Assembly (NCBI GenBank): GCA_021780675.1
Contig: JAJXYH010000013.1
Coordinates: forward strand, 593-64,592
Direction of reading: 5' to 3'
Origin: a bacterium
GTDB lineage: Bacteria > Patescibacteriota > Microgenomatia > Levybacterales > UBA12049
Length of the DNA stretch: 64,000 bases
Below are positions 3,496-61,139 of the stretch, piece after piece. A program made the position numbers and the translations under genes. Within the stretch, counting starts at the first letter, position 1. Every line of letters begins with the position of its first letter. The notes under the pieces are model-generated. The model had not been told where the DNA came from, did not search any database, and saw only the letters and a program-made list of their open reading frames with translations.

Positions 3496-4164
3496 ATGAA
3501 GAATAAAAACGTACTCATAGCTTTTGTTGTAGTTTTACTTCTTTTGCTTTTAGGAGCCGGAGCATACCTTATGCTTAGTAAAAACGCAACTAAGTCCGCT
3601 CAAGTACCAACAGAAAAAACTCAAAAAACAAATACCCAAGCAGAGCAAACAACAAAATCTCTTTTAGATCTTGTTAATTCCGGACAAAAATTACGTTGCA
3701 CGTATAAAACAGCTATTGCCAACGGAACATCCGACGGCACTGTTTACATCTCGGGACAAAACATTAGAGCAGACTTTAATGCTACCGTACAGGGTCAGAA
3801 GCCTACGCAAACCAGTATGATTAAAAATAGAACCACTACTTATATTTGGGGATCTATCATGCAAGGCAAGGGCATAAAAATGACCACAAGCTTGGATGCA
3901 ATGGCGCAAAGTAAAGAGGCTGCTCAGTATGTAGATCCTACTCAAAAACTTGATTATAGTTGCGCTCCGTGGAATGTTGATTCTTCACTTTTCACTGCTC
4001 CTTCAAACGTTGAGTTTACCGATATGACAAATCTTATGGTGCCAAAAGCAACCGTTACGGGAACCCAAACACAAACCGCTCCATCCTCTTCTGATCCATG
4101 CGCTCAACTTACGGGTAGTGTTAAAACCGCTTGTGAAAATGCTTTACAGCAAAGCGGTAAATAG
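3496..4164 (+). CDS. Secreted or membrane-anchored hypothetical protein (N-terminal signal anchor, Thr/Gln-rich, conserved Cys pairs).
   Basis: N-terminal hydrophobic segment followed by a polar extracytoplasmic domain. No recognisable catalytic motif. Confidence 0.4.
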   Translation: MKNKNVLIAFVVVLLLLLLGAGAYLMLSKNATKSAQVPTEKTQKTNTQAEQTTKSLLDLVNSGQKLRCTYKTAIANGTSDGTVYISGQNIRADFNATVQGQKPTQTSMIKNRTTTYIWGSIMQGKGIKMTTSLDAMAQSKEAAQYVDPTQKLDYSCAPWNVDSSLFTAPSNVEFTDMTNLMVPKATVTGTQTQTAPSSSDPCAQLTGSVKTACENALQQSGK

Positions 4165-4165
4165 T

Positions 4166-4312
4166 TTCATCACGAGTTCCGCCTGATAAGCGGACGGCAA
4201 CCGAAAGACAAACGGTGCCAATCCGGAAAGGAAGATGTGTCCTTAAACGTTATCTTAAGGAAAGTCTAATTAAAAGCATTTATGCCTTCCGGATTTTCGG
4301 GAGGTTTTTTGT
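4166..4312 (+). ncRNA. SAM-I-family (S-box) riboswitch with an intrinsic-terminator expression platform, in the metK leader.
   Basis: Conserved S-box core elements GGCAACC (4196-4202) and GGUGCCAAUCC (4214-4224). P1-like 5' strand UCAUCACGAG resembles the consensus UUAUCAAGAG. Terminator hairpin CCUUCCGG-AUUUU-CGGGAGG plus U6 at 4285-4310. The 5' arm of the terminator can alternatively pair with CCGGAAAGG (4223-4231). Sits directly upstream of metK. Confidence 0.55.
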
Positions 4313-4384
4313 TGCGGAGGCAACATTCCGAACAACTCGCGAAGCGGATTAGTTGTGAGGAATTATGAACTTTAAATTTTATAT

Positions 4385-5476
4385 ATGAATTATACTTTTA
4401 CATCAGAATCTGTTTGTGCTGGACATCCGGATAAAATTTGCGATTCTATATCCGACGCAATTTTAGATGCAATTTTAAGCGAAGATAAAAAGGCGCGGGT
4501 TGCAGTCGAAACCGTTGCAGCATTTAATAGGGTTGCAATTGTTGGAGAAGTAACAACCCATGCAAAAGTCGACTATAAAAAGATTGCCAGACAAAGAATA
4601 ATAGACTTAGGATATACAAATCCAAAATTTAATTTCACCGATAAATCCAGGATCGAAGTCGATATCCACGAACAATCACCGGAAATTTATAAAGGTGTAA
4701 AAACTAAAGGTGCCGGAGATCAGGGAATGATGTTCGGCTTTGCATGTACCGAAACTAAAAGTTTAATGCCAATGCCAATAACTATTGCGCATAATTTAGC
4801 AAAAAGATTAGACGAAGTTAAAAAAGACACCCTACCGTTTTTAAGACCGGACGGAAAAACGCAAGTAACTATAGAGTATAAAAATAATAAACCTTACAAG
4901 GTTAACCAAATCGTTATTGCTGTCCCCCATGACGAAAATAAATCATTAAATCAAGTAAAAAAGGCATTATATAAGCATGTCGTTAAATATGTATTAGATG
5001 AATTCGGATTTAAACTATTAGAAAAAGATTTAATTGTTAACGGAACAGGCGTTTGGCATATTCCCGGACCGGCAAGCGATGCAGGGTTAACAGGCAGAAA
5101 AATCATAGTAGATACCTATGGCGGATATGCAAGAGTTGGTGGCGGAGCGTTTTCGGGAAAAGACCCAACCAAAGTTGATAGAAGCGGCGCCTATGCGGCA
5201 AGATTTTTAGCAAAAAATATCGTCAGGGAAGGCTTAGCGGAGAAGGCAGAAGTAAGACTTGCTTATTTTATCGGCGCAAAAAATCCAAGTATGCAGGAGA
5301 TTGAAACTTTTGGTACAGCCAAAGCAAGCGATAAAACAATCAAAAATTTTATGTCTAAAATTCTTGATACCTCTGTTAAGGGAATTTTGAAAGGGTTAGA
5401 CCTGCAAAGGCCTATTTATCTGCAAACTTCAGCTTACGGCCATTTCGGACGAGAAATATTTCCTTGGGAGAAATAA
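4385..5476 (+). CDS. metK: S-adenosylmethionine synthetase.
   Basis: GHPDKICDSISDAILD signature and the C-terminal glycine-rich P-loop GGGAFSGKD. Confidence 0.9.
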   Translation: MNYTFTSESVCAGHPDKICDSISDAILDAILSEDKKARVAVETVAAFNRVAIVGEVTTHAKVDYKKIARQRIIDLGYTNPKFNFTDKSRIEVDIHEQSPEIYKGVKTKGAGDQGMMFGFACTETKSLMPMPITIAHNLAKRLDEVKKDTLPFLRPDGKTQVTIEYKNNKPYKVNQIVIAVPHDENKSLNQVKKALYKHVVKYVLDEFGFKLLEKDLIVNGTGVWHIPGPASDAGLTGRKIIVDTYGGYARVGGGAFSGKDPTKVDRSGAYAARFLAKNIVREGLAEKAEVRLAYFIGAKNPSMQEIETFGTAKASDKTIKNFMSKILDTSVKGILKGLDLQRPIYLQTSAYGHFGREIFPWEK

Positions 5477-5498
5477 GTTTTTGTGCTAAACTAAGTTT

Positions 5499-5744
5499 AT
5501 GAGAAAACTTTTGGCGCTTATCATTTTTTTGTTCCTGATAATCCTGATACCAAATTATTTTACCCAAAGGCAAACAGATGCATATAACAGCAATAATACG
5601 CCGACTACACAGAACGTACAACAACCTACAAATATCCCAACCCCAACTCCTACGGTAATCCCGGCAACTCCTACTCCGCTTCCTCCTATGCAAAACTCTC
5701 TGCAGCTTCCTTCATTTAGAGTAAATGGCGGCGGAGATGATTAA
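5499..5744 (+). CDS. Small membrane-anchored Pro/Thr-rich hypothetical protein.
   Basis: N-terminal TM helix, then a PTPTP low-complexity region. Confidence 0.3.
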   Translation: MRKLLALIIFLFLIILIPNYFTQRQTDAYNSNNTPTTQNVQQPTNIPTPTPTVIPATPTPLPPMQNSLQLPSFRVNGGGDD

Positions 5745-5750
5745 ACTACC

Positions 5751-56238: not shown

Positions 56239-56310
56239 TGCCCCCGCTTGGATTCGAACCAAGGACATCTACTTTATAAGAGTAGCGCTCTACCGCTGAG
56301 CTACAGGGGC
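56239..56310 (-). tRNA. tRNA-Ile with a UAU anticodon.
   Basis: Reverse complement folds as GCCCCTG-TA-GCTC-AGCGGTA-GAGC-G-CTACT-CTTATAA-AGTAG-ATGTC-CTTGG-TTCGAAT-CCAAG-CGGGGGC-A. All stems perfect, one G-U wobble. Anticodon loop C-U-UAU-A-A. Confidence 0.8.
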
Positions 56311-56354: not shown

Positions 56355-58727
56355 TTAAAGTCTTGCTCTTTGGGCAATTTGGGTTTCTAAATTAACGACG
56401 TCTTTACCGTATTTAAGTCTTGAAAGCTCACGAATAAGCTCTGCAACCCTTTGGTTTTCCATCGCTTTTTCTTTTGCCATATCCTTAGTAGTATCCATCG
56501 AAAACGGAGTTACCGGTTCGTTTTTTACAATTGTTTTAACAAAAGCATTAAAAACATCAACATTAATTAAATCCGCTTCGGTAAAAATAGGTTGGAATTC
56601 ATGCTGCAAATAACTTGCATCTGTTACACCCACCCTAAAAGACATTATTGTTCCAACGTTTCCAAAAATTGCGTTTTTAACCTCTTCATCCATTTGTCCA
56701 ATAAACTGGTTTGCAACAATTAAATTCAATCGATATTTTCTTGCCTCCGATAAAATTTGCGCAAAATCCGGTGTAGCGAAATTTTGGAACTCGTCAACAT
56801 AAAGATAGAAATCTTTTCTTTGCTCTTGTGGAACATCTTGTCTACTCATGGCGGCAACTAAAATTTTAGGTACCATAACAAGTCCTAAAAAGTTAGAATT
56901 TTCTTCTCCGATTTTTCCTTTAGAAAGATTTACCAAAAGAATTTTTTGCTCATCCATTACCTTTCTAAAATCAAAGGCTGATTGTGATTGACCGATAATA
57001 TTTCTCATCATTTTATTAGTAACAAACCTACCAAATTTGGAAACTATATAATCCAAGGTTTCCGACTTATGAAAATCGCTGGTTTGGGCGATCTGATCAG
57101 TCCAGTAACGCCTAACAATGGGGTCTGAAACTTTAGGCAATAACTCTTGTACAAACGAGGCATCGGTTAAAGCTCTTACCACCTCTATAAAAGTACTACC
57201 TTGCTCATACATAACCGTAAGCATTGCATTTCTAATTGCATGCTCAAACCTTGGACCAATAATACCGGTTTTATTAGGATCGTAAAGTTTATACATGAGC
57301 CCTACAATTGATGAAACAATATAATGTTTTTCCTGTTCGGTTTGTGCTTCTAGCATATTAAGTCCCATTGGTCTTTGTGAATCTGATGGATCAAATAAAA
57401 TAACATCTTCCGCTCTTTTAGCAGGAATCATTTTAAGTATGTCTTCTATTAAATCTCCGTGCGGGTCAATTACTCCGATTCCTTTTCCCTCCTGAATATC
57501 CTGGATTATCATTTGCTTAAGAAGTTCAGATTTACCAACGCCGGTTTTTCCAATAATGTACATGTGCCTTCTCCTATCGTCATCCTGAATATAAACTGGC
57601 TTACCAATTCCTCTAAATGTACTCATTCCCAAATAAAGTCCGCTTGATGGAATTTGCGATGGAGCCGGAGCCCTTTTTGCATTAATCCATTCAATATGTG
57701 GAGTTGTTACGCTTTTATTTGGAAAATGGAATATTCCTGCCAACTCCTCGCTATTTAAAACAGATAAATTTCCATTTGAAGGAAAATACCTATAAACAAA
57801 ATCTGAAATAAATCCTCCCTTTAGCCAATGTTTATTTTTACTTAAGGAGTTGCTTCCGTCAAACTGGCTAAAAGAAGTTAAAATATTTTCAAGATGGGCT
57901 GTTGCCGCTTCGCTTGATGAAGAAGAGACTACAATTCTAATGACTGCATAAAACCCAGGTTTTGAAATTTTATTCTCAATCGCTTCCAACTCTTTAGGAT
58001 CCGATGAATACTTTGCAGTTTCCGGGTTTGACTCATTTTTCTTGGTTGTTGCAATAAAACTTCGCCCAGCCTTACTCCATTTACTATCTGCTCCTGATAT
58101 TAAAATTTGAATTGCCGCACCTTCACCTTGACTCATTTTTGCAAGAACAGAAGTAATTGAAGCAAGCGGGTCAACTGCAAAGTCCTTATATAATTTTAAG
58201 GATTTAAAATTAGAATCCTTTAGCTTAAGCGATGCAAAAGCAACTTTACCTTCCTTGCTAAAAATATTATATTCGTTGCCAATGATATACCCTTCTTTTG
58301 ATCCCTTTTCCTCAACAACTCTAATTTCTGCATCCGGGTACGAAGCATTAATTTGTTTTTCAACTAAATCTTTATATTTGTTAGGTGTATAGATATAAAA
58401 TCTTATATCTTCGGGCATTCCAACAATTTCAAATGAGATATGCGGAGGATTTTTTAAAAAAGAGAACATTCCGTGAGCTTTAATTCCGGCAAAACTTGCA
58501 AACATTTGTTCGGCTGCATCTATTTTTATTTCATTATCCCTTGGAAGAGAGATTTGAAGAAGTGTAGAATCTAAAGACTGCTTTTCCCTATCCCTGTTTT
58601 TATACCAAATCATCAAAACGTAAGTAACAGCAAAAATTCCAACAATAATAATCGCCAACAAAACAAGGACTACGAAAACTGCAATTATCACATTAAACAT
58701 GTTTGATAAAGAAAAGGCTTGAATCAT
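56355..58727 (-). CDS. Membrane-anchored P-loop ATPase of the VirD4/TraD/TraG (type IV coupling protein) or HerA-FtsK superfamily. 790 aa.
   Basis: N-terminal TM helix. Roughly 380-aa domain of unknown function. Then Walker A IIGKTGVGKSE, a VIDPHGDL block and a Walker-B-like LYVDEFQNF. Confidence 0.55.
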   Translation of the reverse strand: MIQAFSLSNMFNVIIAVFVVLVLLAIIIVGIFAVTYVLMIWYKNRDREKQSLDSTLLQISLPRDNEIKIDAAEQMFASFAGIKAHGMFSFLKNPPHISFEIVGMPEDIRFYIYTPNKYKDLVEKQINASYPDAEIRVVEEKGSKEGYIIGNEYNIFSKEGKVAFASLKLKDSNFKSLKLYKDFAVDPLASITSVLAKMSQGEGAAIQILISGADSKWSKAGRSFIATTKKNESNPETAKYSSDPKELEAIENKISKPGFYAVIRIVVSSSSSEAATAHLENILTSFSQFDGSNSLSKNKHWLKGGFISDFVYRYFPSNGNLSVLNSEELAGIFHFPNKSVTTPHIEWINAKRAPAPSQIPSSGLYLGMSTFRGIGKPVYIQDDDRRRHMYIIGKTGVGKSELLKQMIIQDIQEGKGIGVIDPHGDLIEDILKMIPAKRAEDVILFDPSDSQRPMGLNMLEAQTEQEKHYIVSSIVGLMYKLYDPNKTGIIGPRFEHAIRNAMLTVMYEQGSTFIEVVRALTDASFVQELLPKVSDPIVRRYWTDQIAQTSDFHKSETLDYIVSKFGRFVTNKMMRNIIGQSQSAFDFRKVMDEQKILLVNLSKGKIGEENSNFLGLVMVPKILVAAMSRQDVPQEQRKDFYLYVDEFQNFATPDFAQILSEARKYRLNLIVANQFIGQMDEEVKNAIFGNVGTIMSFRVGVTDASYLQHEFQPIFTEADLINVDVFNAFVKTIVKNEPVTPFSMDTTKDMAKEKAMENQRVAELIRELSRLKYGKDVVNLETQIAQRARL

Positions 58728-59311: not shown

Positions 59312-60466
59312 TTAACATCTGACGTTTTTTCCACAATCCGGATTTTGACAATTTTCTATTAATTGGTTTTCCGGTCGTAAATTTTTCCAACCACAATGCG
59401 GACAATCAAAAGTTCTGTCTCCAAATCTATCTTTTAATTTCCCAAACTCCGAAACACTAAACGGGGCTTTACCTGGCTCCATAAAACTTCCCAAACTAAA
59501 TCCTTCCGAAGTTCCGGGACATGGGCCTTGAGCCTTACGGACATTTTTTGTTCCCATAGCCCAGGAAATATCTTCGGCATAATTTGGGTCAAATGCATAT
59601 CTGTAATACAAGCTGTCCAAAAATTTAGAATCTCCGTTTTTAATTGCATCCAGAACCATATCTGATTGGTTTAGAATTGCATTGTATTTAAGTCTGTGGA
59701 TAAAATGATCGTTTGGTAAACCAACTAAAGAATTTATATAGCTTGTAATAAGAGGTGCGTTTATTTTATTGATTTTATCCATCTCGTCTTTTTCCAAAGC
59801 CTTTATACCGCCGTTTAGATATTTTTGGAGTTCTCCTGAATTATCGAATCCTGTTACTTTTATCGGGTCTTTTAGAAAATCCTCAGCTTTTGGCAAATTT
59901 TCGAAAACTTTAAAAGGTGCTACTCTTTGTCTATATTCATCTGCTGTAAGGTTTGATAAGAAACGTCTGTGTTCTACATATCTTCCTTTTTCATCCTCCT
60001 GAACCGAAAATGTATCAAAAAAATTGTTTGTATAATCCGACCCTGCAATACCCGGAAGCGACACCACCAAGAAAGTAGTTCCGGGAGGGATGTCTTCGTT
60101 AACCAGTTCAGGCTGCATTAGCTTAACTCCGGCAAGTTCTGCATCTTCCCTTTCAAAATCAATAGGATTCCCGTGCTCTCTTCTAAAATTAATTCCATTT
60201 ATCATCATGTCCTCAAGCGATTGTCCCATTGAGGCGGAAAAAATTTTACCCTCAACAATGTCATAACGCGTAACAGATTCTGCAACCTGCACCCTTTCAC
60301 CCATATACGTCTCAAGTTGTCTTTGAGTATATTCTTTTAACCTTTGTTGCTCTTTAAGAGATAGTTCGGAAAAATTTTCATAATCCCTCTCATCAAACGA
60401 AGGATTATATGCAAGTTTTGCCTCTTCCTGTCTATTTGGTATGTAATTTAGTCCTTCTCTTTCCAT
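59312..60466 (-). CDS. Hypothetical 384-aa cytoplasmic protein with a C-terminal Cys4 zinc ribbon.
   Basis: C-terminal CPHCGW...CQNPDCGK. No other recognisable domain. SD GAGGAG 7 nt upstream of the ATG. Confidence 0.4.
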   Translation of the reverse strand: MEREGLNYIPNRQEEAKLAYNPSFDERDYENFSELSLKEQQRLKEYTQRQLETYMGERVQVAESVTRYDIVEGKIFSASMGQSLEDMMINGINFRREHGNPIDFEREDAELAGVKLMQPELVNEDIPPGTTFLVVSLPGIAGSDYTNNFFDTFSVQEDEKGRYVEHRRFLSNLTADEYRQRVAPFKVFENLPKAEDFLKDPIKVTGFDNSGELQKYLNGGIKALEKDEMDKINKINAPLITSYINSLVGLPNDHFIHRLKYNAILNQSDMVLDAIKNGDSKFLDSLYYRYAFDPNYAEDISWAMGTKNVRKAQGPCPGTSEGFSLGSFMEPGKAPFSVSEFGKLKDRFGDRTFDCPHCGWKNLRPENQLIENCQNPDCGKNVRC

Positions 60467-60495: not shown

Positions 60496-60593
60496 TCTTA
60501 TAAAAAGCACTTTTTGCTCGAAAAGATTTTAAGGGGATCTGGCTTTACAGTTGCGGCACAGCGTCGGAATTACACCGACTTTCACCCTAAGAA

Positions 60594-61139
60594 TCATCTG
60601 GATAACCAAATAATTTCTTTTTTGTTTTGTTTCTTATTTATAAATCTAGCATACATAAAAAGCAAGTCCGAAAGCCTATTCATGTAAATTAAAATTTCAT
60701 TGCCAACCTTTTCTTTTTCGGAAAGTTCAACAACCCTTCTCTCCGCACGGCGTACTAATGTTCGCGCAAAATGTAAACTTGCCCCTACTTCCGAACCTCC
60801 CGGAAAAATAAAATTTCTTAAAACCGGCAATTTTTTTGTTAATCCGTCTATTTCTTTTTCAAATAATTTAACTTGTTCTATCAGATGTTTTTCCAACGCC
60901 TGATTATTTAATTTGCTTGGGTTTGCTAAATAAGCGCCGATTTGAAATAAATCGTTTTGAATAACTTCTAAATTTTTTTTAATATTTTTGTTTTTATTCT
61001 TGGAAAGTATGACACCAAGATAACTATTTAGCTCATCAAGCGATCCATAGGTATTAACACGAAGCGAAGCCTTAGAAACTACCTTTCCTGCAAAAAGAGA
61101 AGTCTTGCCTTTATCACCAAATTTAGTATAAATGGACAT
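60594..61139 (-). CDS. PduO-type ATP:cob(I)alamin adenosyltransferase.
   Basis: N-terminal IYTKFGDKGKTSL matches the PduO/MMAB signature IYTKTGDKGTTSL. 181 aa. Confidence 0.8.
   Translation of the reverse strand: MSIYTKFGDKGKTSLFAGKVVSKASLRVNTYGSLDELNSYLGVILSKNKNKNIKKNLEVIQNDLFQIGAYLANPSKLNNQALEKHLIEQVKLFEKEIDGLTKKLPVLRNFIFPGGSEVGASLHFARTLVRRAERRVVELSEKEKVGNEILIYMNRLSDLLFMYARFINKKQNKKEIIWLSR

Follow-up and report, generated by a model that had tools for sequence, protein, structure and literature searches.

The region 4163-4310 of the window (the whole stretch of 64,000 nucleotides analysed here) very probably forms a SAM-I/IV riboswitch that would switch metK off by premature transcription termination. 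Judged from its sequence, the element belongs to the SAM-I/IV family (RF01725) and not to classical SAM-I: all the structural features of the class match, and the features that define SAM-I and those that define SAM-IV are both missing.

The metK locus and its match to RF01725

The gene at 4385-5476 on the forward strand is metK. Its product, an S-adenosylmethionine synthetase, contains the full set of three S-AdoMet_synt domains of Pfam (E = 3e-57 to 5e-36), and the exact MetK sequence is present in NCBI, ENA and Logan. The metK leader is the same in three independent assemblies (two from ENA, one from Logan), all identical, and no natural leader variant was found among them. The riboswitch lies on the same strand as metK, so that the aptamer is found in the 5′ leader of a gene of SAM metabolism. 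A previous annotation made without database searches, hereafter the sequence-only reading, had taken the upstream gene for metG. The upstream neighbour is actually a 222-aa ORF (3496-4164, forward strand) for which a Pfam search returned zero matches. The same reading was right in giving 220 nt to the gap between the stop of this ORF (4164) and the metK ATG (4385). It had also described the gap as the only long GC-enriched intergenic stretch of the neighbourhood; the enrichment holds (GC of 0.42 in the gap and 0.47 in the aptamer, against 0.34 in the window) but the uniqueness does not, as the stretch 5477-5750, which contains an 81-aa ORF, reaches 0.41.

When the whole window was scanned with Rfam at the default gathering thresholds, no SAM family was reported, the only matches being two tRNA genes and a riboswitch of the AdoCbl-II family. 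Permissive scanning of 4100-4420 placed SAM-I/IV (RF01725) at 4162-4278 on the forward strand, with 39.9 bits and E = 2.9e-5 for this 321-nt search, a value that becomes about 6e-3 by our own scaling to the whole window. The match covers the full model (1-99), all other matches in 4100-4420 have E > 2, and SAM-I/IV is the top-scoring family of the SAM clan at the leader. The default scan misses the element because its score is 1.2 bits under the gathering score of 41.1, which is an operational cut-off and not a structural feature. The loss is mainly due to a P3 below the consensus length (three distal pairs are missing) and to extra nucleotides inserted ahead of the 3′ strand of P1, after P3. 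The sequence-only reading had spoken of a SAM-I-type riboswitch, with a possible SAM-I/IV-type variant in reserve, and had proposed to search the leader with covariance models and to look for conserved structure in orthologous leaders. The SAM clan was correctly recognized; the class is SAM-I/IV and not SAM-I, and the variant held in reserve is the one borne out by the best Rfam family. The covariance-model search yields a significant match despite the score below the cut-off, and orthologous metK leaders carry a shared, covarying structure (see below).

A score under the gathering score and an empty default scan at this place could also be explained by a chance resemblance in a GC-richer gap, next to a terminator that simply serves the upstream gene. 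Such a coincidence has a negligible probability in view of the E-value of 2.9e-5 obtained over the full RF01725 model, of the ten other metK leaders with the same architecture, of covariation in five helices and a pseudoknot, and of the specific pairing of the terminator with its own aptamer junction.

Architecture of the aptamer and its conservation upstream of metK

According to RF01725 and to a covariance model of our own (R1), the whole SAM-I/IV-type aptamer, from P1 to P5 with the PK-2 tail, occupies 4163-4272; like all the features of the leader described below, it lies on the forward strand. P1 is made of CAUC (4168-4171) paired with GAUG (4234-4237). It has 4 bp in the window and 5 bp in the relatives, and is flanked by a mismatch between U4167 and U4238. 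The P1-like 5′ strand of the sequence-only reading is indeed present as UCAUC-ACGAG at 4167-4176. J1/2 is ACGA (4172-4175), where the relatives mostly have AAGA. P2 (4176-4195) is an undivided hairpin, with a closing G4176-C4195 pair, a continuous 5-bp stem (4178-4182 with 4190-4194) and the 7-nt loop CUGAUAA; it has neither internal loop nor kink-turn. The same reading had found P2 non-canonical and without a kink-turn, in agreement with this folding. P2 alone folds at -6.7 kcal/mol and compensatory changes occur in relatives at all five inner pairs.

P3 (4196-4219) carries the ligand-binding core GGCAACCG...CGGUGCC. Its strands, 4196-4203 and 4213-4219, leave A4199, A4200 and U4216 unpaired and enclose the loop L3 (4204-4212). 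The core strings listed by the sequence-only reading were all recovered, namely GGCAACC at 4196-4202, GGUGCCAAUCC at 4214-4224 and CCGGAAAGG at 4223-4231. A SAM-I-type core is thereby found, composed of CAUC/GAUG, of ACGA (a J1/2 ending in GA) and of GGCAACCG/CGGUGCC, with pairs invariant in 11/11 leaders. The invariant positions are the central A-U and U-A pairs of P1, the G-C pair closing P2 and three pairs of P3, whose distal pair covaries. We take these invariant pairs to be the SAM-I-type pocket of the SAM-I crystal structures.

In the junction, a minimal P4 hairpin, UCC-GGAAA-GGA (4222-4232, with 4222-4224 paired to 4230-4232 around the loop GGAAA), folds alone at -2.6 kcal/mol, its stem having only 3 bp. 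A hairpin is present at the P4 position in 9 of the 11 leaders, with differing sequences (for instance UGCA-GUAA-UGCA, CUCC-AAAAA-GGAG and GUCC-AAGA-GGAC in relatives), and all three modelled pairs covary. The aptamer extends past the 3′ strand of P1, via P5 and PK-2, to about 4267. P5 (4240-4261) pairs UCCUUAA (4240-4246) with UUAAGGA (4255-4261) around the loop ACGUUAUC; it folds alone at -5.6 kcal/mol and shows compensatory changes at 6/7 pairs. Finally, AGAC in the P3 loop (4206-4209) pairs with GUCU in the 3′ tail (4264-4267) to form PK-2, which has only 4 bp in the window. The tail strand corresponds to SS_cons_1 of the 2010 family alignment (Weinberg et al., 2010).

Two readings of these details were considered and rejected. 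The first was that ACGAG in J1/2 would be a disabling deviation from AAGAG; CACGAG is common in the 2010 family alignment. The second was that the junction hairpin would be an intermediate between SAM-I and SAM-I/IV; the same alignment already annotates a variable hairpin there, and P4 is described in PMC6890682.

The nearest genomic relatives of MetK are found in MAGs of Patescibacteria (CPR), at 58-69% identity, including a Daviesbacteria MAG (Microgenomates group); one relative MAG carries a Gammaproteobacteria label, probably through an error of binning. Metagenome contigs provide relatives of up to 78% identity. Rfam scans revealed a SAM-clan riboswitch upstream of metK nearly everywhere among these relatives, in two forms. 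Classical SAM-I leaders, with 41-57 bits, occur in a Saccharibacteria-like set (L004-L008, L086, L089, L091). SAM-I/IV leaders make up the set nearest to the window. Some of them are at or above the cut-off (L088 with 53 bits, L085 with 48, L002 with 46.2, L094 with 45.8 and L083/L092 with 42.8), and others are under it (L084 with 40.0, L081 with 37.8, L001 with 37.1 and L087 with 34.4). L003 shares the layout of the SAM-I/IV set but has a long insert in P3 and gives no SAM-I/IV match; L082 (71% MetK identity) apparently has no riboswitch directly upstream. Counting the window, the gathering score is reached by 5/11 distinct leaders and missed by 6/11. Model R1, built from five leaders, gave 11 matches upstream of metK elsewhere, 10 of them distinct (L083 and L092 being the same), with 39-100 bits. 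In the window it finds a single copy, at 4163-4272, with 105 bits; no second copy of the aptamer was found elsewhere in the window with either Rfam or R1. R1 separates the group that includes the window (39-105 bits) from the classical SAM-I leaders (< 28 bits).

Covariation was evaluated on 11 distinct sequences, a small sample in an alignment fitted to the model structure; within this frame, 91.4% of the cells in nested helices are paired, and both partners have changed in 18 of the 26 pairs. In 500 column shuffles, the values of the real alignment were not attained for any of the five measures used. When the 3′ partners were slid by 1-3 columns, pairing fell to 35-47% and the covariation score dropped from 0.455 to 0.10 or less. 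The pseudoknot behaves similarly. Its two strands vary together across the leaders (AGAC:GUCU, AGAUU:AAUCU, AAGUAUU:AAUACUU, AAGCUU:AAGCUU, AAGU:ACUU and UAAAAGUU:AACUUUUA), and cognate strands pair better than non-cognate ones (permutation tests, p = 1.5e-4 on helix length and p = 0.002 on the energy of the duplex), the pairing being weak or unclear in three leaders (L003, L087 and L084).

These data bear on the possibility that the leader would be a classical SAM-I (S-box, RF00162) riboswitch. The strings of the binding core are indeed common to SAM-I, a hairpin occupies the P4 position, and close Saccharibacteria-like relatives of MetK carry true SAM-I leaders (41-57 bits). However, SAM-I/IV scores best of the clan, P2 in the window has no internal loop or kink-turn, P5 and PK-2, both absent from SAM-I, are present, and R1 gives the true SAM-I leaders less than 28 bits. 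Moreover, a contact of the PK-1 type joining the P2 loop to J3/4, for which 3-4 bp can be drawn by eye in many leaders, had to be rejected. The best L2:J3/4 helix has 3 bp, and cognate combinations are not better than non-cognate ones (2.68 versus 2.45, p = 0.13). Assignment to classical SAM-I is accordingly regarded as very improbable.

Terminator, antiterminator and the route to metK

The SAM-I/IV aptamer is followed by an intrinsic terminator (4284-4310), GCCUUCCGG/AUUU/UCGGGAGGU, in which 4284-4292 pair with 4297-4305 around the loop AUUU. The hairpin (4284-4305) has 9 pairs and -12.3 kcal/mol; a run of six U occupies 4305-4310, its first U also closing the stem. The sequence-only reading had placed a terminator there, upstream of metK, and had proposed that its 5′ arm pairs alternatively with the 3′ region of the aptamer. 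The terminator is confirmed, and the alternative pairing proves longer than had been claimed. The 5′ strand of the antiterminator (4220-4238) runs through J3/4, P4, J4/1 and the 3′ strand of P1; its 3′ strand (4276-4296) overlaps the 5′ arm and the loop of the terminator. Within these limits, AAUCCGG-AAGG (4220-4231) pairs with CCUUCCGGAUU (4285-4295) over 11 bp with one bulged A, at -15.1 kcal/mol (z = -3.7 compared with shuffled partners). The duplex is more stable than the terminator hairpin, a relation to be expected of a transcription OFF switch that depends on SAM. In the minimum-energy fold of a transcript ending at 4296, this antiterminator is formed together with a helix between 4233-4238 and 4276-4281 that sequesters the 3′ strand of P1, whereas P2, P3 and P5 are kept.

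When either fold is enforced, the energies are nearly equal, -42.3 kcal/mol for P1 plus terminator versus -41.2 kcal/mol for the antiterminator, in an energy model that comprises neither PK-2 nor SAM binding. Stabilization of the aptamer by its ligand could tip the balance between the two folds. The pairing is also specific across the ten terminator-bearing leaders. The mean energy of the duplex between junction/P1 3′ strand and terminator arm is -10.3 kcal/mol for cognate partners versus -7.05 kcal/mol for non-cognate ones, and 0/20,000 permutations do as well. Antitermination via the 5′ strand of P1 and J1/2, or via P5, was rejected, as the overall signal is weak or absent (p = 0.03 and 0.26, respectively); strong pairings of this kind are confined to some of the relatives (L085, L001) and are not seen in the window.

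By analogy with classical S-box leaders, we infer a SAM-dependent transcription OFF switch. When SAM is abundant, its binding would lock P1, P4 and PK-2, and the junction strand would no longer be free; the terminator would then form and RNA polymerase would stop 75 nt ahead of metK. At low SAM, the nascent RNA would adopt the antiterminator fold and metK would be transcribed.

The transcript on which this switch would act may start upstream of the leader. A search for sigma-70-type promoters on the forward strand near the leader found nothing convincing. By eye, TTGTGA is kept at 4131-4136 and the -10 position reads GCGGTA, inside the 3′ end of ORF 3496-4164. Since no promoter was found on this strand and the aptamer starts 3 nt past the stop codon of that ORF, the riboswitch probably serves as an internal attenuator of transcripts that continue from ORF 3496-4164 into the leader. 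A bypass promoter of the leaderless type at the metK ATG was also envisaged and rejected, since neither a TATAAT-like box at the expected distance nor any promoter match was found. In the relatives L001, L002, L081, L083, L084 and L087, a promoter-like pattern TTGnnn-17-TTTAAT can be recognized by eye about 30 nt upstream of P1, ending 6-9 nt before it and often with an upstream TG, as in an extended -10 box.

The position of metK relative to the terminator also varies. Most relatives have their AUG 2-15 nt past the U-run. In the window, a spacer of 73 nt (4311-4384), missing from most relatives, separates the terminator from metK, and the permissive Rfam scan gave no meaningful match in it. 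L002 lacks a terminator altogether, and its AUG comes immediately after the PK-2 tail, an arrangement which suggests that this leader may be under translational control. In L083, L085, L088, L084 and L001, the 3′ arm of the terminator reads GAGAGG or GGGAGG and is followed by 5-7 U and then by the metK AUG. One hairpin could thus serve in these leaders both as terminator and as mask of an SD-like sequence.

These variations raise the question of whether the aptamer in the window, although real, would have a mainly translational output, or would be a decaying relic without regulatory role. L002 speaks for the first case, and the short distance between U-run and AUG in most relatives makes a terminator 3′ arm such as GAGAGG resemble a sequestered ribosome-binding site. 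As for decay, P1 is shortened in the window, the promoter of the relatives is lost and the 73-nt spacer has been inserted. Against both, in the window 75 nt separate the metK AUG from the terminator, and this AUG lacks an SD, a signal rarely used in this genome (7/56 ORFs); the terminator (-12.3 kcal/mol) and the antiterminator (-15.1 kcal/mol) are both intact and balanced; the core nucleotides are all conserved; and a 4-bp P1 is normal in the clan, as SAM-IV shows (PMC6890682). A translational or relic element is on the whole considered unlikely, and transcription termination is retained as the probable output.

A second, translational output added to the riboswitch may also be imagined, in which a chain of uORFs would relay ribosomes to metK. 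GGAGG at 4300-4304, in the 3′ arm of the terminator, is located 7 nt ahead of a TTG (4312) that opens, as read by eye, an 18-codon uORF. The stop TGA of this uORF (4366-4368) overlaps, as ATGA, with an ATG at 4365. The latter starts a 7-codon uORF (MNFKFYI) whose stop TGA (4386-4388) overlaps in the same way with the metK ATG at 4385. Two consecutive ATGA overlaps could reflect translational coupling, or chance in an AU-rich sequence. If ribosomes were relayed along the chain, GGAGG hidden in the terminator hairpin would also stop metK translation, and the spacer would be a coupling device rather than junk. We give such a relay only a small probability. The spacer also contains two small hairpins, GUUGC-GGAG-GCAAC (4311-4324) and CAACU...AGUUG (4333-4355).

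Relation to known SAM riboswitches and to other features of the window

The 'SAM-I/SAM-IV variant' alignment of Weinberg et al. (2010) gathers 473 sequences from 'several phyla, marine', whereas the window belongs to a probable member of the Patescibacteria. The consensus structure of the alignment has a junction stem of variable length, then a hairpin after P1, and a second structure line pairs L3 with the 3′ tail. Many members have a junction hairpin of 3-4 bp, and many have CACGAG in J1/2 (string CAU.CACGAG). The supplementary text describes SAM-I/IV variants without P2 internal loop and without pseudoknot at the tip of P2 (Weinberg et al., 2010). In the cryo-EM study of SAM-IV, SAM-I/IV is characterized by an undivided P2, the absence of PK-1, a P4 helix, P5 and PK-2, and the crystal structure of SAM-I/IV is cited (Trausch et al., 2014, as cited in PMC6890682).

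The element of the window shares with SAM-I/IV (RF01725) P1, the undivided P2, the P3 core, a variable P4, P5 after P1, PK-2, the absence of PK-1, the CACGAG variant of J1/2 found in the family alignment and the association with a gene of SAM metabolism. It departs from typical members by its score 1.2 bits under the cut-off, its shorter P3 and its minimal 3-bp P4. It is an ordinary member of a known family and alters nothing in what is known of the way the class works. The comparison with the neighbouring classes leads to the same assignment. SAM-I (S-box, RF00162), exemplified by the metK and yitJ leaders of Firmicutes, has the same binding core, type of gene and terminator/antiterminator logic. 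In contrast to SAM-I, the window has no P2 kink-turn and no PK-1 but has P5 and PK-2 in addition, and its antiterminator strand is mostly J3/4 and P4, whereas that of SAM-I is mainly the 3′ strand of P1. With SAM-IV (RF00634), the element shares P5, PK-2, the common binding pocket and a P1 of four base pairs (PMC6890682 for SAM-IV). Unlike SAM-IV, where P2 is split into P2a and P2b, PK-1 is present and P4 is absent, the element of the window has a continuous P2 and a P4 and lacks PK-1.

In a host that is probably a member of the Patescibacteria (CPR), SAM synthesis would be under feedback control by a riboswitch of a known class, and no description of native riboswitches in Patescibacteria was found in the literature searched. 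As 6/11 distinct leaders fall below the gathering score, standard annotation under-reports SAM-I/IV in these lineages, missing about half of the leaders of the group; addition of such leaders to the RF01725 seed would mend this. Moreover, in related CPR lineages metK is preceded either by SAM-I (Saccharibacteria-like) or by SAM-I/IV (Daviesbacteria-like), and this split provides a small, clean data point on class replacement.

The starts of the 56 ORFs of at least 120 aa in the window were surveyed for signals. A TATAAT-like box (at least 5/6 matches) ends 4-12 nt before the start at 26/56 ORFs, with a peak at 6 nt, versus 3/56 in an intragenic control, and an SD-like motif is found at only 7/56. 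These sequence signals suggest that most mRNAs of the genome may be leaderless. metK, with its structured leader of 220 nt, is an exception to this pattern.

The AdoCbl-II (cobalamin) riboswitch reported by the default Rfam scan is located at 60524-60599 on the reverse strand and scores 40.5 bits for a gathering score of 36.5. A cobalamin adenosyltransferase gene (PF01923; ORF 60594-61139, reverse strand) immediately precedes it, and downstream of it is a 384-aa ORF without Pfam match (59312-60466, reverse strand), a candidate B12-regulated gene that may serve uptake or binding. Finally, a 790-aa ORF (56355-58727, reverse strand) contains TrwB/TraG-type coupling-protein domains (PF10412, PF12696) and adjoins a tRNA gene (56239-56310, reverse strand); the ORF may belong to a conjugative or integrated element.
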